DNA of 64,000 bases from the NCBI GenBank assembly GCA_016210545.1, contig JACQTY010000103.1, positions 194-64,193 on the forward strand, in the 5' to 3' direction. A model generated the notes under the pieces. That model had not been told where the DNA came from, searched no databases, and was given only the letters and a program-made list of their open reading frames with translations. Within the stretch, counting starts at the first letter, position 1. Every line of letters begins with the position of its first letter. Source of the DNA: Chloroflexota bacterium (GTDB lineage Bacteria > Chloroflexota > Dehalococcoidia > JACVQG01). Positions 4,136-60,244 of the stretch are shown here, one piece after another. The position numbers were made by a program, and so were the translations under genes.

Positions 4136-4870
4136 CTAGGCAGCTACGCCGCCCTTGCATTTTGCCGTCGGGACCAGGCCGCCGAAGCGGCGTTGCCTCT
4201 GGCTGTAGGCGCGAATAGCATCCTCGATCTCTTCCTCATCGAAGTCCGGCCAGTAGGTTGGAGTGGCATAGTATTCGCTATAGGCAGCTTGCCACAGAAG
4301 GAAGTTGCTCAAACGCAACTCTCCGCCAGTGCGAATGATAAGGTCCGGGTCGGGCAGCCCCGCCGTGAAGAGATAGCTAGCAAAAAGCTTTTCATCTATG
4401 CTCTCCGGCGGCGCCTTCTCTTCGATGAGCCGCCGCACTACACCAAGGATTTCCGCCCGTCCACCGTAATTGAACGCCAGGCTAAGGGTAATGTTAGTGT
4501 TGTGACGGGTAAGCTCTACGGCTTCCTTCACCTGGCGGACGAGGTGAGAAGAAAGCCCGTCCGTAGTACCCAGGTGGCGGATATGCACCCCCCTCTCGTG
4601 GAGGGCGCGCGTTTCTCTTTGGATGACCTGCCCCAGCAATCGGAAGAGGCCGTTGACCTCGGACCTGGGCCGGCTCCAGTTCTCAGTGGAAAAGGCATAC
4701 AGCGTAAGATACTTCACGCCGCGACCGGCAAAAGCATCGATGACCCTTCGGATGTTCTCGGTGCCCGCCCGGTGTCCCTCGACACGCGACAGGCCCCTCT
4801 GCTTGGCCCAACGGCCATTTCCATCCATTATTATGGCCACGTGTTGCGGGACCGTGGATATACTGGCCAT
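4136..4870 (-). CDS. uppS: undecaprenyl diphosphate synthase (isoprenyl transferase)
   Basis: HVAIIMDGNGRWA and YAFSTENWSRP motifs. The start was chosen at the internal Met (MASISTV...) to avoid overlap with the upstream acyl-CoA dehydrogenase. Confidence 0.88.
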   Translation of the reverse strand: MASISTVPQHVAIIMDGNGRWAKQRGLSRVEGHRAGTENIRRVIDAFAGRGVKYLTLYAFSTENWSRPRSEVNGLFRLLGQVIQRETRALHERGVHIRHLGTTDGLSSHLVRQVKEAVELTRHNTNITLSLAFNYGGRAEILGVVRRLIEEKAPPESIDEKLFASYLFTAGLPDPDLIIRTGGELRLSNFLLWQAAYSEYYATPTYWPDFDEEEIEDAIRAYSQRQRRFGGLVPTAKCKGGVAA

Positions 4871-4910: not shown

Positions 4911-6056
4911 CTAGGGTGCACCTATCTCCCGCCCAATGACTATGTGCTGGATTTCAGAAGTGCCCTCGGTAATAGTGTAGAGTCGGGCATCCCGATAGTA
5001 GCGCTGGACGGGCGAGTCCATCATGTAGCCGTAGCCTCCGTGGATTTCCATGGCCTCGCTGGTAATGTCCACCACCACTTCGCTGGCAAACAGTTTGGCC
5101 ATGGATGCCTCTTTCAGGCAGCGACGTTTCTGGTCATGCATCCAGGCGGCATAGTAGGTCAGCCAGCGGGCCGCCTCCAGTTGCGTCGCCATGCGGGATA
5201 GCTTGAAGCCGATCGCCTGGAATTTGCCTATCGGTTGGCCGAACTGCACCCGTTCAGAGGCATACTTCAGGGATGCCTCGTAGGCAGCCTGGGCCACACC
5301 CAGACTGCGACCGGCGTGGGAAATGCGACCGCCGTCGAGGGTCTCCATCACGTAACGGAACCCTTTACCCTCCTCACCGACCAGGTTACTCGCCGGCACC
5401 CGGCAGTTATCAAATACCAGTTCCGCAGTCCCGCCGGACCTGTTGCCCAGCTTCTCCATTTTGCGGGATACGGTAAAGCCCGGCGTCCCCTTCTCCACGA
5501 CAAATACGCTCACCCCTTTGCCGGGGCCTTTGCTCCTGTCCGTGTAGGCCGCAACGCAGACGAAATCGGCGTAGGGGCCGTTGGTGATGAATATCTTTGT
5601 GCCGTTGATGATATAATGGTCCCCGCTCCTCACGGCCTTCGTTTGCATGTTGGCGGCATCGGAGCCGGCATTGGCCTCGGTCAACCCGAAGGCAGAAATC
5701 TTCAGCCCCCTGATAGCGGGCGACAGATACTTCTGTTTTAGCTCCTCGCTGCCGTGGTCAGCGATCATTGAAGTGCCCAGTCCTGAGTGGACCATGACAG
5801 CAGAGGCAATCCCGCCCGATATGCGGGCCACCTCCTCCAGCAAGATACATTCGCTCAGTTTGCCCAGTTCAGCGGCGCCATACTTGGCTGAATACCGGGC
5901 GCAGATATAACCCAGTTCCCCCATCTTGGGGAACAGGCCCGGGGGGAAAATCTCGGTAGCCTCTGCCTCGTCCACCAGCGGCGCTATTTCCTTTTCACAG
6001 AAGCTCCGCACCGCCTGCTGAAACATCTTGTGTTCTTCTGACAGGTCAAAGTCCAT
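4911..6056 (-). CDS. acyl-CoA dehydrogenase
   Basis: 381 aa with the ACAD fold signatures GLTEANAGSD and YTITEGTSEIQ (C-terminal catalytic Glu region). Confidence 0.85.
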   Translation of the reverse strand: MDFDLSEEHKMFQQAVRSFCEKEIAPLVDEAEATEIFPPGLFPKMGELGYICARYSAKYGAAELGKLSECILLEEVARISGGIASAVMVHSGLGTSMIADHGSEELKQKYLSPAIRGLKISAFGLTEANAGSDAANMQTKAVRSGDHYIINGTKIFITNGPYADFVCVAAYTDRSKGPGKGVSVFVVEKGTPGFTVSRKMEKLGNRSGGTAELVFDNCRVPASNLVGEEGKGFRYVMETLDGGRISHAGRSLGVAQAAYEASLKYASERVQFGQPIGKFQAIGFKLSRMATQLEAARWLTYYAAWMHDQKRRCLKEASMAKLFASEVVVDITSEAMEIHGGYGYMMDSPVQRYYRDARLYTITEGTSEIQHIVIGREIGAP

Positions 6057-25798: not shown

Positions 25799-27232
25799 AT
25801 GAAGGTCCTTCTAATCAATCCCAACTACGTCACCCAGGTGTATGGAGAGGAGACTCTGGACTACTTGGTAGCGCCCCTCGGGCTGGCCTACGTAGCGGCA
25901 GTTCTCAAGCGAGACGGTGTGGACGTGAGCTTGCTAGAGGCTAATGCCCTCGGCCTGGGCATGGACGACATAGAAAAAGAGATCAAACGCCAGAAGCCGG
26001 ACCTGGTTGGCATTACGGGGACTACGCCCCTTATTGCCCGGGTAGAGGAAATCGCCCGGCGAGCCAAGTCGGCAGACAAGGGCATCAAAGTGGTGGTGGG
26101 CGGTCCCCACGCTACCATTCTTCCCCAGGAGGTGTTGAAAAGCCAGAACATCGACTTCTGTGTGCGCGGGGAAGGTGAAATCACTGCCCTCGAGCTTGTG
26201 AAGGCATTGGAAAAGGGCGGCGACTTTGGCGCCATTCTGGGGCTGGGATTCAAGAGCAACGGGCAGATCCACCTGAATGACAGCCGCCCGCTCATCAAAG
26301 AACTGGACAGTCTCCCATTCCCGGCCAGGGAGTTGCTCCCGATGGAAAAGTATATTTTCCCTCTTCCTACGGGTGCAGTGGCGCGGTTCACCAACCTCAT
26401 CTCAAGCCGGGGTTGCCCGTACCTTTGCACTTTCTGTGGGCAGCACAATATCTGGACGCGCCTGGTGAGGTTCAGAAGCCCGAAGAATGTTGTCGATGAG
26501 ATACAGGCAGTCAAAGACAAATACGGCGTCGCCTTTGTGGGTTTCACCGATAGCAACTTCCCGCTGAACCGCAAGATAACCATGGACATCTGTGACGAGA
26601 TGGCGGCGCGTGGGATCAAGATAAAGTGGGCCTGTGGCTCACGGGTGGACCTGGTAGACCAGGAATTGCTGAGAAAGATGCACAAGGCTGGATGTCAGCA
26701 GATCAACTTCGGCGTGGAGTCGGGAAACGCCGAGATCCTGAAGGGTTACAAGAAGGGCATCACCATTGACCAGGCCAAGACTGCCATAAAGCAGGCGAAG
26801 AAGGCCGGACTCAAGGTGTATACCTACTTCATGGTGGGGGGGCCGGGCGAAACCAGGGAGACGGCGGAGGAGACGATCAAGTTGGCCTAGAAACTCGACC
26901 CCGACTACGCCCAGTTCTCCGTTGCCACGCCATTTCCGGGGACGGAGCTATTTGAGATGGCCAACGCTGGGGGCGCGCTGGGGAGCTACGATTGGACTCA
27001 GTTCCTGACCTATCAGGCGCCCCTATTCGCTACGAAGAACCTTTCCGCAGCGGAGCTCGAGGAACTCAAGGCCAGAGCGTTCCGCAGCTTCTACCTCCGG
27101 CCGTCTCTGATGTTGAAGAAGGCACTGCAAATCAGGTCTTTGTCCGATATCAAGATTCTGGCCAAGGGGTTCCGTTTTGCTTTGAAGCTGGGTAAGGGGA
27201 AGGCAGCAGCGGCCGCGGCCAAAACATCCTAG
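25799..27232 (+). pseudogene. B12-binding radical SAM protein, paralog 2, interrupted by an in-frame TAG at 26888-26890
   Basis: GGPHAT and GCPYLCTFC motifs. The reading frame continues unbroken after the TAG as KLDPDYAQFSVATPFPGTELFEM..., which aligns to the paralogs (ELDPFAINLSIATPYPGTEL, VSPLWPMYSIVTPYPGTEL). The TAG sits where paralogs have Lys or Tyr (AAG/TAY), one substitution away. Intact length would be 477 aa. Confidence 0.65.
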
Positions 27233-27234
27233 TA

Positions 27235-27292
27235 GCATGTAACATTTACTTTTGATACTGGTGGCACAGGCGTCTCTGCCTGTGCAATGGCG
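27235..27292 (+). ncRNA. copy 1 of a conserved ~35-nt motif plus GC hairpin (unknown RNA/regulatory element)
   Basis: AGTAGCATGTAACATTTACTTTTGATACTGGTGGCAC followed by the hairpin GCACAGGC-gtctct-GCCTGTGC. Second copy at 58985-59043 has the same motif and a different but structurally equivalent hairpin. Confidence 0.4.
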
Positions 27293-28204
27293 AAAAATGC
27301 CCTGTTACAGCGTACTAGCAAGACGTCCGTCGGCTCAAGGCAAACTGCTGGAAGGAGTTGCACCCAAATAGAGAACAGCGATTCCAAAGGCGCCAGAAGA
27401 TTCGAGTTGGCCCAAGTCTGGGAGAAGGATTTCTGGGCAAACGTGTGGACGGACGACCGGGCCAGGCAGACCAAGGCCAGGTCATACTGGGAACACTACA
27501 TAGCCGTCCTCAAGGAGTACGCGCGTCTGAAGACGGACGACAGGGTGCTGGATGTGGGCTGCGGTCCCTTCGGCATGATCAGCTATCTCGCCCAGGGGCA
27601 GAGGTTTGGCCTGGACTCCTTGATGCACTTCTATCTGGCCAGTTTCGATATGGAGAAGGAGGTGACCTGGGCGAGCGGCGGCGCAGAGAGTTTGCCTTTT
27701 GATGACGCATTCTTCGATGTGGTTATATGTACAAACACTATAGACCATACACGGGTGCCACAAAGGGCGCTGGCCGAAATGAACAGGGTACTCAAGAGTG
27801 ACGGGGTTCTCTTCTTGACCGTGCATATCTACTCCCGGCGTGTGAGAACCGTCAAGGCGTTTCTGGAGAGAGTAGGTTGGGGAGACCCTCCACATCCCTA
27901 TTCGTTTAATGTCCCAGACGTAAAGCGCCTGTTAAGTGAGTCGGGCTTCAAGCTGACTGGCTTGAGACACGGCATCGGCAATCTGGATTTCTGGGTTGGG
28001 GGCGAGAAGACCGGAGACCCAAAAACTTTTGTCTCCAGGACCAGGGACTACGGCAACAGGGCCGTGGCAATTGGGAGAAGTAAGGGCGCCCGGGTACTGT
28101 TCAAAACACTGGTGAGGTTTGCCCTGCTCTTTTTGCTGATGGATACGCAGAGGTCAGCCGATACAATATTCCTGGCCAGGAAGAAAGCTAGCGCCTCCGT
28201 TTGA
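27287..28204 (+). CDS. class I SAM-dependent methyltransferase
   Basis: Motif I VLDVGCGPFG, an acidic motif II and motif III VLKSDGVLFLTVH. Confidence 0.75.
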   Translation: MAKNALLQRTSKTSVGSRQTAGRSCTQIENSDSKGARRFELAQVWEKDFWANVWTDDRARQTKARSYWEHYIAVLKEYARLKTDDRVLDVGCGPFGMISYLAQGQRFGLDSLMHFYLASFDMEKEVTWASGGAESLPFDDAFFDVVICTNTIDHTRVPQRALAEMNRVLKSDGVLFLTVHIYSRRVRTVKAFLERVGWGDPPHPYSFNVPDVKRLLSESGFKLTGLRHGIGNLDFWVGGEKTGDPKTFVSRTRDYGNRAVAIGRSKGARVLFKTLVRFALLFLLMDTQRSADTIFLARKKASASV

Positions 28205-28253
28205 TGTTGACGCTGGATTAATGACTCCATCATATTATTGCAGTCGAAAACCC

Positions 28254-28390
28254 CAGTTTCGATTCACTTTGTGAATCGAAACTGCCCCCTTTACGTAAAG
28301 GGGGTCCGAAGATGTCCCGATAGTTCGGGACTCATCAGGACTCTCCGATACAGTATGGCTACCTATCGGAGTCCGAGCGGAGTTCGGACC
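28254..28390 (+). other. array of consecutive perfect hairpins / multibranched structured element in the gmd leader
   Basis: Hairpin 1 is CAGTTTCGATTCAC-ttt-GTGAATCGAAACTG (14 bp, 28254-28284). Next is the 20-nt palindrome CCCCCTTTACGTAAAGGGGG (28285-28304). An outer stem GGTCCGAA (28303-28310) / TTCGGACC (28383-28390) encloses GTCCCGA-tagt-TCGGGAC (28314-28331) and CTCCGATA-N13-TATCGGAG (28343-28371). Confidence 0.5.
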
Positions 28391-28559
28391 GTAAAGGTGA
28401 AGCACTTTCGGAGGGGCTTTCTCCATAGCACCTGCACGCAAATGAACAAGACGTAACGGACTTATATAACAAGTTGACACTGGACACCGAACCGGACAAA
28501 GGGTGGTGTACCTGCGGTTTCCTGGCCTTTCTGAATGTTTCACACGAGAGGACAGTTCC

Positions 28560-29612
28560 TTGAAATCAGCTTTGATAACAGGCGTAACAGGACAGGACGG
28601 CGCCTACCTGGCAAAGTTCTTGCTGGAGAAAGGTTACACCGTATACGGCACGTATCGCCGGCTGTCCACGCCCAATTTCTGGCGGCTGCAGTATCTGGAT
28701 ATTTTCGACCAGGTTAACCTGGCGCCGGCTGACCTGCTGGACTCATCCTCCATCGGAGAGGCCATTCGTGTATCTCAGCCGGATGAGATCTACCATCTGG
28801 CAGCGCAGAGCTTTGTGGGGGCCTCTTTTGAACAGCCGGTGGGGGCAGGTGAGATCACCGGGCTGGGAGTAACCCGTGTCCTGGAAGCAGTGCGCACCCT
28901 CAAGCCCGATGCGCGTGTCTACCAGGCATCTACCAGCGAGCTATTCGGCAATAGTCATACGGCCTGTCAGAATGAAGCCTCCGTTTTCGCCCCGTCCAGC
29001 CCGTACGCCGCCGCGAAGCTGTATGGCTACTGGTTGACCCGCATCTACAGGGAAGGCTACGGCCTGTTTGCCTGCAACGGCATTCTGTTTAACCATGAGT
29101 CCCCGCTGCGGGGCCTCGAGTTTGTTACGCGCAAGGTAACCAACGCGGTGGCCCAGATCGCTCTCGGCCTGAGCCAGAAGCTGGTGCTGGGCAACCTCGA
29201 TGCAAGAAGGGACTGGGGGTATGCCCCGGAGTACGTGGAGTCCATGTGGCTTATTCTCCAGAAAGACAAGCCGGACGACTACGTGATAGCAACCGGGGAG
29301 GCCCATTCAGTGAGAGAGATGGTTGCCGAGGCGTTCCAGAGAGTGGACATGGACTGGGAGAAGTATGTTGAGGTGGACAAGAGGTTCGTGAGGCCATTAG
29401 ACGTGGATTTACTTTGCGGCGATGCCTCCAAGTCAAAAAAGGAACTGGGCTGGCAGCCGCGGGTCAAGTTCAACAAGCTGGTTGACATAATGGTTGAGGC
29501 GGACCTGAAACGCTGGGAGCGCTGGCAAAAAGGCGAGCACTTTCCCTGGGATGCCCCGAACTACCCCAACGAGAATAAGATACTGTCCCGCCAGTTTAAG
29601 CTGGATAGATAG
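28560..29612 (+). CDS. gmd: GDP-mannose 4,6-dehydratase
   Basis: Probable TTG start with GAGAGGA SD, giving MKSALITGVTGQDGAYLAKFLLEKGY. Also YAAAKLY and LFNHESPLRG. The longer ORF from 28503 is probably a 5' extension. Confidence 0.88.
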   Translation: MKSALITGVTGQDGAYLAKFLLEKGYTVYGTYRRLSTPNFWRLQYLDIFDQVNLAPADLLDSSSIGEAIRVSQPDEIYHLAAQSFVGASFEQPVGAGEITGLGVTRVLEAVRTLKPDARVYQASTSELFGNSHTACQNEASVFAPSSPYAAAKLYGYWLTRIYREGYGLFACNGILFNHESPLRGLEFVTRKVTNAVAQIALGLSQKLVLGNLDARRDWGYAPEYVESMWLILQKDKPDDYVIATGEAHSVREMVAEAFQRVDMDWEKYVEVDKRFVRPLDVDLLCGDASKSKKELGWQPRVKFNKLVDIMVEADLKRWERWQKGEHFPWDAPNYPNENKILSRQFKLDR

Positions 29613-29615
29613 GCC

Positions 29616-30032
29616 ATGCTAGAGACTATCGAAGCTCGCGGCCAGGTGTTTGCTCTCGTGATACGTTGCGGCCATAGGAGCCAGGGCGTTGAGTTTTACT
29701 CTCGACCCGAATACGCTTTGCAACTGGGCCTGTTGCAGCACCCCAAAGATGCGGAGATAAAGCCGCACATACACCATTCAGCTACCAGATCCATCAGTGA
29801 GGTGCAGGAGGTGCTGCACATCGAGCGAGGACGAATAGAGGCCGAATTCTTCACGTCCTCCGGCGAACCGGTCGCTTCATGCTTGCTCAACGAGGGAGAT
29901 ACGATACTGCTGGTGAGCGGCGGCCATGGCTTCCGCGTCCTGGACGAGGCCACGATCCTGGAGATCAAGCAAGGCCCGTACGAGGGCAGAGACACGGACA
30001 AGGAGCCCCTCAAGGTGAAAAACGGTGGCTGA
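29616..30032 (+). CDS. cupin-fold sugar nucleotide ketoisomerase/epimerase-like protein (WxcM/FdtA-like)
   Basis: 138-aa single cupin barrel (HIHH...E...GGHGFRV) between gmd and a DegT aminotransferase, the typical position of 3,4-ketoisomerases/epimerases. Confidence 0.5.
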   Translation: MLETIEARGQVFALVIRCGHRSQGVEFYSRPEYALQLGLLQHPKDAEIKPHIHHSATRSISEVQEVLHIERGRIEAEFFTSSGEPVASCLLNEGDTILLVSGGHGFRVLDEATILEIKQGPYEGRDTDKEPLKVKNGG

Positions 30033-31158
30033 AACAGCGCGGCGGCAGACGATTCCGGTGTGCGAGCCCCTCTTGCTGGGGCAGGAATCGGCGTACGTAC
30101 AGGACTGCCTGAGAACAAACTGGATCTCCTCACGCGGCAAGTACATCCAGGAGTTCGAGAGCAAGTTTGCGGCCTATTGCGGCTGTTCTTATGGAGTCAC
30201 CACAACCAACGGCACCACCGCCCTGCACCTGGCCCTGGCGTCCATAGGTATCGGAGAGGGCGATGAGGTGGTCCTTCCTACCTTCACCATGGCTGCGTGC
30301 GTGCTGGCCATTCTGTATACAGGAGCTACCCCTGTTCTGGTAGACAGCGACCCAGACACATGGAACATGGATGTCAGCCAGTTGGAGGCTAGGATTACGC
30401 CGCATACGAAAGCCATAATGCCCGTGCATATCTACGGCCATCCTTGCGACATGTCGCCCATTCTCGACGTCGCTTCCAAACACAGCCTGTGGGTGGTGGA
30501 GGATGCCGCCGAGGCCCACAGCGCCGAATACAAGGGCAAGCGGGTGGGAGGTATTGGCCAGTTGGGGTGTTTCAGCTTTTATGCCAACAAGATCATCACC
30601 ACCGGCGAGGGTGGCATGGTGGTTACCAATGACCCGAAAATTGCTCAGCGGGCTAGAGCCTTGAAGGACCTGGCCCACTCGCCACAGCGGCGCTTCCTGC
30701 ATACCGAGATCGGCTTCAACTACCGCATGACCAACCTTCAGGCGGCTATCGGACTGGCTCAACTGGAGCGTATCAATGAGCTTTCAGAGATGCGGCGGCG
30801 CAATGCCAGTCGCTACAACTCGCTGCTGGCTGGGGTGCCGGGGATAAGACTGCCTGTGGAGAGGGCGTGGGCTCGCAACGTCTACTGGATGTACTCTGTT
30901 GTGATCAAGGACGCGTTTGGAGCCAGCAGGGATGACCTGATGGCCCGGCTAACCCAGCGCGGCATTGAGACGCGCCCCATGTTCATACCCATGCACCAAC
31001 AGCCGGCTTTTCTGCAGCGAGGCCTGTTCACGGGGGAGCGCTATCCGGTTGCCGAGGAACTGTCCGAAAGGGGGCTAAACCTACCGTCAAGCTCTGGCCT
31101 CGGAGACGCTGTGCATGCCGTATGCTCAGCTATCGGCGAAATAGCCGGGGGAGCATAG
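30025..31158 (+). CDS. DegT/DnrJ/EryC1/StrS-family PLP-dependent sugar aminotransferase
   Basis: IPVCEPLLLGQE...TNGTTALHLAL...FSFYANKIITTGEGGMVVTND, and FNYRMTNLQAAIGLAQLE. Confidence 0.85.
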   Translation: MAETARRQTIPVCEPLLLGQESAYVQDCLRTNWISSRGKYIQEFESKFAAYCGCSYGVTTTNGTTALHLALASIGIGEGDEVVLPTFTMAACVLAILYTGATPVLVDSDPDTWNMDVSQLEARITPHTKAIMPVHIYGHPCDMSPILDVASKHSLWVVEDAAEAHSAEYKGKRVGGIGQLGCFSFYANKIITTGEGGMVVTNDPKIAQRARALKDLAHSPQRRFLHTEIGFNYRMTNLQAAIGLAQLERINELSEMRRRNASRYNSLLAGVPGIRLPVERAWARNVYWMYSVVIKDAFGASRDDLMARLTQRGIETRPMFIPMHQQPAFLQRGLFTGERYPVAEELSERGLNLPSSSGLGDAVHAVCSAIGEIAGGA

Positions 31159-33842: not shown

Positions 33843-35351
33843 GTGCTTGAAAGGGCAACGATGAAGGGCAGTTCAATAAAGAAAGTTCTACTAATTAATC
33901 CTCCGTGGTACAGAATATTCGGTGAAAGTATGTATAACAATCCTTTGGGGATATCCTATTTAGCTGGCGTGCTAGAGCAGAGTGGCATAGAGGTATCAAT
34001 CTATAATCCGGACATTGTTACCAGAGGTAAGAAATCCACGGATGAGAGTCGTATTCCCAAATACCATACCTACATAAATACCCTGCGTAGTCTGGAGCAT
34101 CCGTTGTGGAGCGAGGTTGAAACCGTAATTGCTCGACATCAGCCCGACCTTGTAGGTATCACTGTGATGACGGCCAGATACGGATCAGCATTGAACGTGA
34201 GCAAGATTGTGAAGAGGCTGTCTAAAGACGTGCCGGTTGTATGGGGCGGGATACACCCTACAATCATGGCAGATGACTGTTTGAAACACCCTGAAGTGGA
34301 CGTAGTCGTAAGAGGCGAAGGGGAATACGTTTTCAAGAACCTAGTAGAACACTTCGGACAGTTCGGTAGTATGGCCGGAATCTCCTACAGAGATGGCACC
34401 AAGTTCGTGCACAATCCTCCAATGCCATTAATTCACAATCTGGACAGCCTGCCGTTCCCCGCCAAGCACCTCATTGTTGACAAAGAAAAAATGCCAAGGG
34501 AGAGTTTCGGGAACATATTGGGTGCTAGGGGCTGCCCTTTCGATTGCATATTCTGTGGAGCGCACCTCATCTGGTCCCACAAGGTAAGACATCGTTCCCC
34601 AGAGAATGTTGTCAGAGAAATAAGGGAGACGAAAAACAATTTCAGAACTAACTACTTTGTCTTTGAAGATGATACCTTTACCGTGAACAAGAAATATGTA
34701 TTGGCGTTGTGTGACCTTCTGATAAAAGAGAGGATGCGTATACTGTGGAGTTGTAAGACGAGGGCTGACCTGATCAGTGATGATTTGATTGCTAAAATGA
34801 GGGAAGCGGGCTGCGATTCAATCGAAATCGGGATCGAATCAGGCAGTGACGAGACACTACAAAAGATGAAAAAGGGCATCACTACAGAACAGGTGGTTCT
34901 GGCAAAGGCGCTCTTGGAAAAATATAAGATAAAAATGGAGTCAGGCTTCATGTTTGGTTTCCCATGGGAAACCAAAGAAGACTTCCAAGAAACGACTGCC
35001 TTTATGAAAAAGGTGTCTCCATTGTGGCCTATGTACAGCATCGTTACACCCTACCCGGGTACTGAGCTTTACGACATGGCAGTTGCCCAGCGCCTCATCC
35101 CTGATAACCCGGATTGGAGCACGTTTTACCCTGAAAGAGAAGGCGGATACCTATCGAAGGGCGTACCACAGGATGAAGCAGAGAAAGTTTTCTCTCAGAT
35201 TGAAAAGGAGTTCACCCAATATACAAGAAGGCAAAAGAGGAGAATCCTTCTTTCGCACCCCTGGTACGTCTTTCTAAGGACCAAGAATACGGGCTATTTT
35301 AACATACGCACCATATGGAGTTTCCTCAGGAAATACCTTTGGGTTAAGTAG
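33843..35351 (+). CDS. B12-binding domain radical SAM protein, paralog 4 (low-GC copy)
   Basis: VLLINPPWYRIFGE..., GGIHPT and GCPFDCIFC. Closest to paralog 1 but encoded with AT-rich codons (about 45% GC versus about 60% in the flanks). Confidence 0.85.
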   Translation: MLERATMKGSSIKKVLLINPPWYRIFGESMYNNPLGISYLAGVLEQSGIEVSIYNPDIVTRGKKSTDESRIPKYHTYINTLRSLEHPLWSEVETVIARHQPDLVGITVMTARYGSALNVSKIVKRLSKDVPVVWGGIHPTIMADDCLKHPEVDVVVRGEGEYVFKNLVEHFGQFGSMAGISYRDGTKFVHNPPMPLIHNLDSLPFPAKHLIVDKEKMPRESFGNILGARGCPFDCIFCGAHLIWSHKVRHRSPENVVREIRETKNNFRTNYFVFEDDTFTVNKKYVLALCDLLIKERMRILWSCKTRADLISDDLIAKMREAGCDSIEIGIESGSDETLQKMKKGITTEQVVLAKALLEKYKIKMESGFMFGFPWETKEDFQETTAFMKKVSPLWPMYSIVTPYPGTELYDMAVAQRLIPDNPDWSTFYPEREGGYLSKGVPQDEAEKVFSQIEKEFTQYTRRQKRRILLSHPWYVFLRTKNTGYFNIRTIWSFLRKYLWVK

Positions 35352-35484: not shown

Positions 35485-35512
35485 TATACCCCAGGTTTAA
35501 ACCTGGGGTATA
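35485..35512. promoter_or_regulatory. perfect 28-bp palindrome (candidate dimeric-regulator operator or RNA hairpin)
   Basis: TATACCCCAGGTTTAAACCTGGGGTATA, centred on GTTTAAAC, in a 330-bp intergenic region with further hairpins (GCAAACTAA/TTAGTTGC, TCTTGATT/ATCAAGA, TTGCCCGCGCC/GGCGCCGGGCAA). Confidence 0.4.
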
Positions 35513-58702: not shown

Positions 58703-58984
58703 TTCTTGTCTCGCCTGCCCGGAGACTGTCGCTAACCCGGACCCGGCTGACTAAAAGTAATTGCACTCATTCTATCATTTCTCGGCGTTTTGTAAAGCCC
58801 GACCATGGCGCTCGTTTGGGTGCAGCCCCACGGCCAACTGCAAGACAGGGCAAGAGACGCCGAGACAAGGGGGTCCAGACATCGTGTACTCAGGGCCGAG
58901 AAACCCGGGGATGGGGCAAGTCGGGGTTCTGTCGCCGCCTGGGCCAGAAGTGGCCCCGCTGCAGTGGGGCCACTTCTGGCCAGT

Positions 58985-59043
58985 AGCATGTAACGTTTGC
59001 TGTTGATACTGGTGGCACCCCGACTTGTCGGGGCCTGTGCGGT
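58985..59043 (+). ncRNA. copy 2 of the conserved motif plus GC hairpin
   Basis: AGTAGCATGTAACGTTTGCTGTTGATACTGGTGGCAC followed by CCCCGA-cttg-TCGGGG flanked by GCAC...GTGC. Compare copy 1 at 27235-27292, which has 31/35 identical motif positions and compensatory stem changes. Confidence 0.4.
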
Positions 59044-59086
59044 AGCGACAAAGATGCTGCTACAAGGTATTAGGCGTATAGCCTTC

Positions 59087-59781: not shown

Positions 59782-60206
59782 TTCCTCTCATATCGAGTAA
59801 TCGCGATAACCTGGCCTCTTGACCCTCTCGGCTCAGGAGGCCAGGTTGCCCCTATTATAAAGGCGCAGTCTCCGGCTTGGCAATAGGGAGAACGTCCAAA
59901 ATCCACCACCCGTTGAATCTTGGCAAAACAGCATCTTTTTCACCAAATTGGTGCAGCAACTGTCTTGGAGAGGCCGCTATGACCTCTCCCTTTGGAAAAG
60001 GGAGACTGAGAGGGATAATGATGGCGGATTAAGAACGTACTGTCACACGCGGGTTATGGGGGATTACGAAGAGGCTGGCAAGTCGTTGGAACCACTACGT
60101 AGAGACGCGCAGGCCAGATCAATGCGCGGTTCAGCCCTGCGGACCGGGCAAGGCCGTCCTATGACGGTCACTGAGCAGATATAGTGGAGCTGCCATCCGA
60201 CAAAAC

Positions 60207-60244
60207 AGGAAGTCCAGGCCCAATAAATTGGGCCTGGACTTCCT
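60207..60244 (-). terminator. rho-independent terminator downstream of the amidohydrolase gene
   Basis: Perfect 16-bp stem AGGAAGTCCAGGCCCA-ataaa-TTGGGCCTGGACTTCCT. On the minus strand it is followed by GTTTTGT. Confidence 0.6.

Follow-up and report, generated by a model that had tools for sequence, protein, structure and literature searches.

Repetitive extragenic palindromes (REPs), REPINs and bacterial interspersed mosaic elements (BIMEs) are GTAG-tagged repeats that are moved by RAYT/TnpA-REP transposases (Bertels & Rainey 2011, PMC3116915; PMC3733652), with the GTAG class of REPs thought to be mobilized by RAYT transposases (PMC3733652). REPs occur mostly between co-directional or convergent genes, near the upstream stop codon, and form clusters (Di Nocera 2013, PMC3733652); they are often nested in target palindromes, whether small or long, and this holds for Thermomicrobium roseum of the Chloroflexi too (PMC3733652). 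Our searches of the literature on repeats of Chloroflexi found only general papers on REPs and on miniature inverted-repeat transposable elements (MITEs). In this study, we analyzed a 64,000-nt stretch (the window) of contig JACQTY010000103.1 from a metagenome-assembled genome (MAG) of the Chloroflexota, in which a dense array of perfect hairpins lies between a methyltransferase gene and gmd. Our analyses indicate that the sequence at 28216-28479 is probably one composite copy of a dispersed, non-coding, intergenic family of hairpin repeats in uncultured Chloroflexota, assembled into a nest that resembles REPs and BIMEs. The family is apparently uncatalogued; it had no Rfam match, and its palindrome CCCCCTTTACGTAAAGGGGG was in no paper of the literature searched by text. 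It is unusual for its three-way, modular design, in which one arm is invariant and another hypervariable, and for how far the window copy is nested.

The existence of a family was revealed by a scan of metagenome contigs, in which the 20-nt perfect palindrome CCCCCTTTACGTAAAGGGGG was found exactly in 107 stretches, compared to a chance expectation of ~1 match as estimated from the size of the collection. Many of these stretches come from the same few groundwater and bioreactor-type metagenomes, and 92 have unique flanks. All 92 of those copies follow one modular layout, consisting of an outer helix, P1 (GAAAACCCCC/GGGGGTTTTC, with the consensus (c)GAAA(A/C)CCCCC ... GGGGG(T/A)TTTC(g)), the palindrome as an invariant arm, P2, and a variable, internally perfect hairpin, P3, at one junction only, which is typically GTCCCGAT-nn-ATCGGGAC or GACCCGATTCACC...GGTGAATCGGGTC. 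The few basal members without P3 (on the related contigs L057, L071 and L074; such contigs and loci are denoted below by L numbers) are single perfect palindromes of ~50 bp, GAAAACCCCC-(TAA)-CCCCCTTTACGTAAAGGGGG-(TTA)-GGGGGTTTTC, and most copies have the additional P3, which gives them a three-way junction. A covariance model of this three-helix structure, R1, was built from 40 aligned copies; within P3, changes on both sides of the helix were present at 8 of the 11 pairs, and the covariation score was reached by none of 500 shuffles. When applied to the window, R1 had a sole full match in the 64 kb, at 28243-28319 on the + strand (53.6 bits, E 3e-12), where it aligned the 5' arm of P1, P3 and P2 in the order and spacing of the model. 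Across 720 kb of related loci R1 had 259 matches in total, ~30 of which are unselected copies with variant P2 loops (~1 per 25 kb) that keep the C5T3/A3G5 stem of P2 and vary at its center (ACGT, ATGT, AGT, AAT or GCGT). One of the roles suggested in the original prediction for this array, that of a miniature repeat element, is thus borne out by the exact palindrome copies, the R1 match and the unselected copies.

The components of the window copy and the coding features on either side of it are as follows.

27287-28204, + strand: methyltransferase gene, stop codon at 28202-28204; the repeat unit begins 12 nt downstream
28206-28217 and 28473-28484, + strand: 12-nt direct repeat GTTGACGCTGGA with its partner GTTGACACTGGA, the pair bracketing the unit
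28216-28479, + strand: structured repeat unit of 264 nt including conserved flanks, delimited by flank identity to L057, L012 and L014
28246-28254, + strand: P1 5' arm GAAAACCCC of the outer helix, R1 positions 3-13; partner in the minimum free energy (MFE) fold at 28413-28421
28254-28284, + strand: H1, the P3 of this copy by R1 alignment, 14-bp perfect stem and 3-nt loop, CGATTCAC..GTGAATCG subtype
28285-28304, both strands: PAL, the P2 hairpin, 20-nt perfect palindrome CCCCCTTTACGTAAAGGGGG known from the exact metagenome copies, abutting H1
28294-28301 and 28390-28397: 8-nt direct repeat CGTAAAGG, which with the 8-bp inverted repeat brackets an insert of ~88 nt
28303-28310 with 28383-28390, both strands: 8-bp inverted repeat GGTCCGAA/TTCGGACC
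28305-28412, + strand: block of hairpin modules of ~108 nt between P2 and the P1 3' arm, holding H3, H4, H5 and a small hairpin
28314-28331: H3 GTCCCGATAGTTCGGGAC, perfect hairpin within the 108-nt block, with P3-like arms GTCCCGA/TCGGGAC
28338-28374: H4, with an 8-bp perfect core of 28343-50 paired with 28364-71
28371-28389: H5, arms GTCCGA/TCGGAC, its 3' arm overlapping the right arm of the 8-bp inverted repeat
28389-28412: small hairpin at the end of the 108-nt block
28413-28421, + strand: displaced P1 3' arm GGGGCTTTC, pairing with 28246-54 in RNA and DNA folds
28546-28562, + strand: gmd ribosome-binding site (RBS) GAGAGGA and TTG start (28560), 350-aa product

Inspection of the sequence placed the hairpins, the 20-nt palindrome and the 8-bp inverted repeat where the original prediction had put them, and its assertion that the density of stems is far beyond background also held. 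The RNA fold of 28240-28400 is more stable than all 200 dinucleotide shuffles, at -73.6 kcal/mol for the + strand (z -6.4) and -76.1 kcal/mol for the - strand (z -7.1), and 28240-28430 ranked first in fold stability on both strands in a GC-corrected sliding scan (150 nt) of the whole 64 kb. An outer helix formed by 28246-54 and 28413-21 closes the whole array (-86.6 kcal/mol, z -7.0), and this closure was reproduced with DNA folding parameters. All hairpins coexist in one multibranch fold, with the exception of the stem of the 8-bp inverted repeat, which is mutually exclusive with H5 and gives way to it in the MFE fold. Consequently, the 8-bp outer stem that had been proposed to enclose two hairpins is present as a repeat and is unused as a helix in that fold. 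The array had also been delimited as 28254-28390, and although the features lie there, the unit is larger, as evidenced by the outer helix and by the conserved flanks that extend it to 28216-28479.

The window copy differs from the layout of the family in the position of the P1 3' arm, which R1 expects after a linker of ~3 nt beyond P2 and which is shifted by ~108 nt to 28413-28421, with the conserved family flank CATAGCAC... directly 3' of it. The window copy is therefore an expanded variant of the family. Modules of the intervening block have counterparts elsewhere: H3 on the minus strand scored as a second P3 (26.8 bits with R1, filters off), a 25-nt stretch with H5 in it (28365-28389) is matched exactly by L042 975-999, and related loci contain 10 hairpins of the H5 type and 8 copies of the core of H1, itself present once in the window. 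Outside P1, the flanks of the window copy are 87% identical at 28216-28254 (39 nt) and 94% identical at 28413-28479 (67 nt) to those of the basal L057 element, and ~80% identical to those of L012 and L014, and the genes around these three copies are unrelated to those of the window. Because its flanks match a basal element that sits amid unrelated genes, the whole 264-nt unit is a repeat, of which the window copy is an expanded, nested form. The 12-nt bracketing repeat may or may not be significant, as its GTTGACA also makes up the right-hand end of the element itself in L057 and L012. The ~88-nt stretch bracketed by the 8-bp inverted repeat and the direct repeat CGTAAAGG looks like an insertion into P2, whose terminal inverted repeats and target duplication these two repeats may be; the CGTAAAGG repeat is no more than suggestive of such a duplication.

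At a larger scale, the core is embedded in at least three carrier units with their own terminal inverted repeats, namely the L020-type (TGTTCCAACA), the L056-type (CTAGTGTKCTGACAG) and the type shared by the window and L057. The loci L056, L059, L036 and L096 were at one point considered to be orthologous loci differing by a flip of the loop, an interpretation that was dropped as they are copies of a larger carrier unit. CCCCCTTTACGTAAAGGGGG was absent from viral contigs in the scan, and the region 28205-28559 had no blastn match in the plasmid and phage collections. A match to the core of H1 in the genome collection, in Iodobacter arcticus (n=1, about the level of chance), was judged unrelated, being an AT-rich promoter palindrome duplicated with its gene. 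In that genome (L002) the palindrome TTCGATTCAC-ATT-GTGAATCGAA occurs at 4284-4306 and 5956-5978, 1672 bp apart, upstream of the duplicated genes; a tandem duplication has probably copied an operator here, one with no relation to the window.

Nearly all copies of the family are intergenic. The 150 nearest flanking open reading frames (ORFs) match 176 Pfam families, mostly of ordinary metabolism, and neither GDP_Man_Dehyd nor transposases were among the 25 most frequent of those families. Three-way copies between co-directional genes have an orientation bias of 26:8, or 24:7 once copies with similar outer flanks are merged (p 0.003), and the window copy belongs to the minority. In the majority orientation, 8 of the 26 copies start 5-13 nt past the upstream stop codon, and the median distances to the upstream and downstream genes are 55 nt and 120 nt, respectively; ~10 copies are located between convergent genes and ~5 between divergent genes. 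No target-site duplication was identified around P1, the flanks of all 43 copies matching at the chance level of 0-2 nt. Mismatches in P1 and P3 include G-T 40 times and A-C 48 times, and with no bias toward wobble pairs there is therefore nothing that points to selection on one RNA strand. L042 has two tandem units of ~214 nt at 497-900 whose palindrome is 9 nt upstream of the GGAGGA RBS and ATG of a minus-strand gene and, therefore, some copies are situated in 5' untranslated regions beside a start codon.

These properties align the family with REPs, REPINs and BIMEs in several respects. Like them, it consists of short, high-copy, extragenic stem-loops that are single or clustered, often nested in target palindromes, near the upstream stop codon between co-directional or convergent genes, and without target-site duplication. 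In addition, RAYT genes are present in genomes carrying the family. A tblastn search with an approximate query for the Escherichia coli RAYT had two matches on repeat-bearing contigs, L035 5155-5739 and L032 6655-7035 (minus strand), both of which were then assigned to the Pfam family Y1_Tnp; a search of the same kind with an approximate sequence of IS608 TnpA had no match. The L035 protein is 44% identical to the E. coli RAYT and its gene is flanked by GTAGGGTGGGTTAAGC REPs, and the gene in L032 is flanked by GTAGTTGCCCGATTCATCGGGC REPs whose CCCGAT/ATCGGG core is the same as that of P3. That core is not exclusive to them, as it also centers many other GTAG...CTAC palindromes in these contigs. 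The family differs from REPs in that no GTAG tag is present in its P1 and P2 scaffold, which is also not found beside the RAYT genes seen, its stems are perfect, and its unit is a three-way junction, of whose arms one is invariant and another hypervariable, in place of a single imperfect palindrome or a REP doublet. The junction beside P3, formed by the last G of P2 and the next three bases, is GCAG in 25 of the 43 copies and GTAG in 2 of them, and may or may not correspond to the unpaired GTAG (GYAG) at one end of a REP stem-loop; in the copy of the window it is paired. It is because P1 and P2 have no GTAG tag, the RAYT genes do not have them as flanks and the CAG in the window is paired that the family is classified here as REP/BIME-like rather than as REP.

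Similarities also exist with MITE-like repeats such as Correia/NEMIS, ERIC, RUP/BOX and Nezha, which are likewise non-coding, 50-300 bp in length, intergenic and present in many copies, have terminal inverted repeats (as the larger carriers of our family clearly do) and may have promoter- or terminator-like ends. However, the target-site duplication of cut-and-paste, DDE-type MITEs is missing around the core, there is no sequence similarity to these families, and carrier units of at least three different types enclose one and the same core; in addition, no related autonomous insertion sequence turned up in ~0.88 Mb of sequence, in analyses that included no search aimed at one.

Several observations weigh against the assignment of the window element to a REP-like dispersed family. 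The 64-kb window has only one full copy, so that multi-copy status in the source genome would have to be drawn from relatives. It has no RAYT gene, and both RAYT genes that were found (n=2 loci) are flanked by GTAG REPs and not by P1 or P2. The GCAG "tag" of H1 is base-paired, its CAG lying within the 14-bp stem, unlike that of a classical REP; H4 is without a homologue in the related loci; and no terminator or promoter was called by consensus scans of the element. Of those relatives, one that bears a copy encodes a protein 90% identical to the product of a window ORF. In favor of the assignment, the window has at least three other hairpin repeat families in common with these contigs.

A mechanism by which such a nest might arise can be proposed. 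The hairpin units, P3 and probably H3 to H5, would spread at the DNA level as single-stranded hairpins by means of a RAYT-type (Y1/HUH) transposase, with the P1/P2 palindrome as the preferred host site for these guests. Transposition of this single-stranded kind would account for the orientation bias, for the nesting in palindromes and for the fact that target duplications are missing. A more elaborate version, which we raise tentatively and consider unlikely, is a system of scaffold and guests in which P1/P2 is a landing pad tolerated by the host after stop codons, maybe as a terminator or insulator, and RAYT-type P3 and H3 to H5 hairpins insert into it repeatedly in one preferred orientation. 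If true, hairpin nests would grow like Russian dolls, could tune the relative expression of neighboring genes in an operon, and would represent a previously undescribed two-component system in the Chloroflexota. The three-way junction itself may be a functional RNA recognized by a protein.

The position of the element between the stop codon of the methyltransferase gene and the start of gmd, along with its extreme stability, had led to its proposal as a structured 5' leader or riboswitch-like element controlling the GDP-perosamine/GDP-sugar module, and it does have in common with riboswitches and other cis-regulatory leaders that it is a highly structured, RNA-capable spacer upstream of a biosynthetic gene. 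That explanation we now regard as extremely unlikely. A search for homologous structured spacers upstream of gmd in relatives had been suggested as a check, and it can be made in the orthologous cluster L115/L116, which encodes counterparts of the GT4 glycosyltransferase (78% identity), radical SAM protein (88%), Gmd (75%), the 138-aa ORF product (68%), DegT (79%) and the next radical SAM protein (87%). There, the radical-SAM gene is followed by a spacer of 107 nt and gmd, with no methyltransferase gene, and the L115 spacer folds no better than its shuffles (z +0.25). R1 had no match at E<=1 in L115/L116, L113, L112 or L110, and the element is absent from four further gmd loci besides L115/L116, that of L113 having a spacer of just 35 nt before gmd. 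Because it is absent from the syntenic cluster and from other gmd loci, the element is not a conserved gmd leader, absence from orthologous loci having been named in the original prediction as counting against it. Homologous copies stand beside unrelated genes. The statement that it resembles no recognizable RNA family was upheld, since Rfam had nothing at gathering threshold in the whole window, nothing relevant even at E<=10 in 28100-28650, and no match at gathering threshold in 14 related loci; the sub-threshold scores were at chance level (CRISPR-DR63, 21.5 of 37 bits, E 0.81; HCV_SL588, 20.9 of 79 bits). The stems are perfect and the folds equally stable on both strands, with the absence of a G-U bias described above, the central loop of P2 varies so that there is no conserved unpaired core, there is no expression platform, the unit ends 81 nt before the start codon and leaves the RBS untouched, and the copy has the minority orientation of its family. 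A different regulatory role, that of a bidirectional intrinsic terminator or insulator, is unlikely. According to this explanation, the A-tract, GC-rich helix and T-tract of GAAAACCCCC...GGGGGTTTTC end upstream transcription and the family spreads or persists by supplying terminators. The basal members, as perfect palindromes with both an A-tract and a T-tract, have such an organization, many copies begin 5-13 nt after a stop codon, again as intrinsic terminators do, and the ~10 convergent and ~5 divergent placements fit it as well. The T-tract, however, is 3-4 nt long, and our scan, which demanded a GC-rich hairpin followed directly by at least 5 T in 8 nt, called no terminator-like site in the copies of the window, L074, L057 or L020. 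Moreover, the helix is branched, the 3' arm of the window copy reads GGGGCUUUCUCC on the + strand, that copy lies within a long co-directional cluster with no consensus promoter between it and gmd, a symmetric terminator leaves the 24:7 orientation bias unexplained, and the family keeps its sequence across many loci and organisms, in contrast to ordinary terminators, each of which is distinct.

An element that produces rather than ends transcripts, as a small RNA gene or a cassette of promoter and 5' stabilizer, is a quite improbable alternative. It derives from a conserved, promoter-like motif on the P1 side (TTGTTC/TTCACT, N16, TGcTATGGA/TATGAC) that would fire into the element, which in the window would create an antisense transcript to the 3' end of the methyltransferase gene, on the minus strand from ~28425 to 28244. 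The hexamer-like blocks and their 16-nt spacing are kept across subfamilies in which the sequence of the spacer varies, the motif points along the flanking genes in the majority orientation, and the other end of the L012 element has TTGACA-N17-CATAAT ahead of a gene. Yet the consensus promoter scan misses the motif, whose -10 block is without the final T, minimal copies directly after stop codons do not have it, and there is no wobble bias for either strand. The perfect, spacerless and strongly conserved sequence of P2 could also be that of a double-stranded DNA operator for a dimeric regulator (e.g., TTTACGTAAA within the 20-nt palindrome), with the copies marking a regulon, but this is very unlikely as the variant copies keep the C5T3/A3G5 stem and change precisely its center (ACGT to ATGT, AGT, AAT or GCGT), the flanking genes are functionally unrelated, and copies cluster past stop codons and not in promoter regions. 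Finally, an artefact of assembly or amplification, such as fold-back chimeras in the MAG, is barely credible. Contig L001 of the Logan assembly does begin inside H4, at window position 28362, a break that is to be expected from repeated k-mers, but it is 100% identical to the window over 28362-30609, which includes the 3' arm of H4, H5 and the P1 3' arm, and the arrangement of the left half, with its P1, type of P3 and P2, is seen again in many independent metagenome assemblies.

Two specific RNA or DNA classes were also considered and ruled out. A CRISPR repeat is contradicted by the uniqueness of H1 in the window, the single weak CRISPR-DR63 score and the lack of a tandem array, and a hammerhead on the minus strand (CUGAUGAG followed by the H3 hairpin) has no GAAA after stem II and no Rfam match.

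If the element is a REP/BIME-like repeat, as we favor, its consequences at this locus would most likely be REP-like effects on RNA, such as protection of 3' ends and attenuation. It would be transcribed inside the polysaccharide operon, and its multibranch fold of -87 kcal/mol could act as REP elements do, as a barrier to 3'-5' exonucleases that shields the upstream methyltransferase message. Alternatively, or alongside this, it could be a partial break in transcription, or in translational coupling, between the methyltransferase gene and gmd that lowers read-through into the latter. It would not function as a switch that responds to a ligand or signal. A role as a processing or stability element, which the original prediction had also listed, would be a plausible consequence.

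The locus represents a warning case for annotation, in that an extreme fold z-score ahead of a biosynthetic gene resembles a riboswitch and is here repeat DNA; R1 can be used to mask or label such sites in MAGs of the Chloroflexota. The family also offers a tractable example of hairpin repeats that are nested, from a phylum that has been little studied, having an invariant and a hypervariable arm, an orientation bias and a proximity to stop codons. It could be of use for studies of REP/RAYT-like mobility, of the break-points of metagenome assemblies and of the reshaping of operons by inserts, an example of the latter in the window being the methyltransferase gene, which lies between two repeats and is absent from the orthologous glycan cluster.

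The genes around the element belong to a long + strand cluster for glycan biosynthesis that includes glycosyltransferases, B12/radical-SAM enzymes, the methyltransferase, gmd, an ORF of 138 aa and a DegT aminotransferase. The TTG at 28560, as originally proposed, is the real start of gmd, and MBI4287976.1 is identical to the 350-aa product that begins there; among 5.8 billion proteins the closest Gmd has only 77% identity. The gmd start is 81 nt past the end of the repeat unit and neither it nor the RBS is paired with the element. By consensus scan, there is no promoter-like site on the + strand from the element to gmd, and the element contains no terminator-like site. An exact-match look-up of the methyltransferase protein had no record. 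Upstream of it, an in-frame TAG at 26888-26890 splits a gene for a B12-binding radical-SAM protein (25799-27232) into ORFs of 363 and 91 aa. The ortholog in L115 has a Lys at that codon (KLAKKLDPDY versus KLA*KLDPDY in the window), and the TAG could reflect a nonsense mutation or pseudogene, a sequencing error or a site of read-through. The methyltransferase gene and the repeats on both sides of it (window 27233-28559) are missing from the syntenic cluster of the relative (L115 2894-3000), and the gene looks like a cassette, bracketed by repeats, that was inserted between the radical-SAM gene and gmd.

The repeat on the other side of that gene belongs to a second family, with a length of ~90 nt, that was identified at 27229-27320 and 58983-59060 of the window and at L058 2190-2280. 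Terminal inverted repeats (CTAGTAGCATGTAACA / TGTTACAGCGTACTAG) delimit it, and its central hairpin, which is variable, lies in a GGTGGCAC...GTGC frame. Because the first ATG of the methyltransferase gene (27287) is within this repeat, the true start of that gene may be further downstream. In L058 a three-way-junction repeat lies 55 nt away from the ~90-nt element.

A related, second three-way-junction family (AAAATCCCTCTCAA, TCTCCCTTTnnnAAAGGGAGA, ..., CCCCCTTTCGCAAAAGGGGG, ..., GGGGGATTTT) has sites at ~59975-60025 of the window (minus strand), L063 4016-4966, L052 2111-2196 and L074 902-986. L063 has four tandem-spaced copies of it, and that in the window is a partial copy around the hairpin at 59985-60005. 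Three further intergenic structures are present in the window. A 28-nt perfect palindrome, TATACCCCAGGTTTAAACCTGGGGTATA, at 35485-35512 in an intergenic gap of 329 nt, is also found in L041, L051 and L091, in two of which it directly adjoins the three-way-junction repeat. The other two, which are second and third in fold stability in the window, are a perfect hairpin with a 16-bp stem and 8-nt loop at 58942-58981 and a 38-nt palindrome, AGGAAGTCCAGGCCCAATAAATTGGGCCTGGACTTCCT, with an 18-bp perfect stem and 2-nt loop at 60207-60244. Lastly, a perfect palindrome of 24 nt, TTTGGTTTCCCATGGGAAACCAAA, is situated at 34953-34976 inside a radical-SAM-type ORF (33843-35351).

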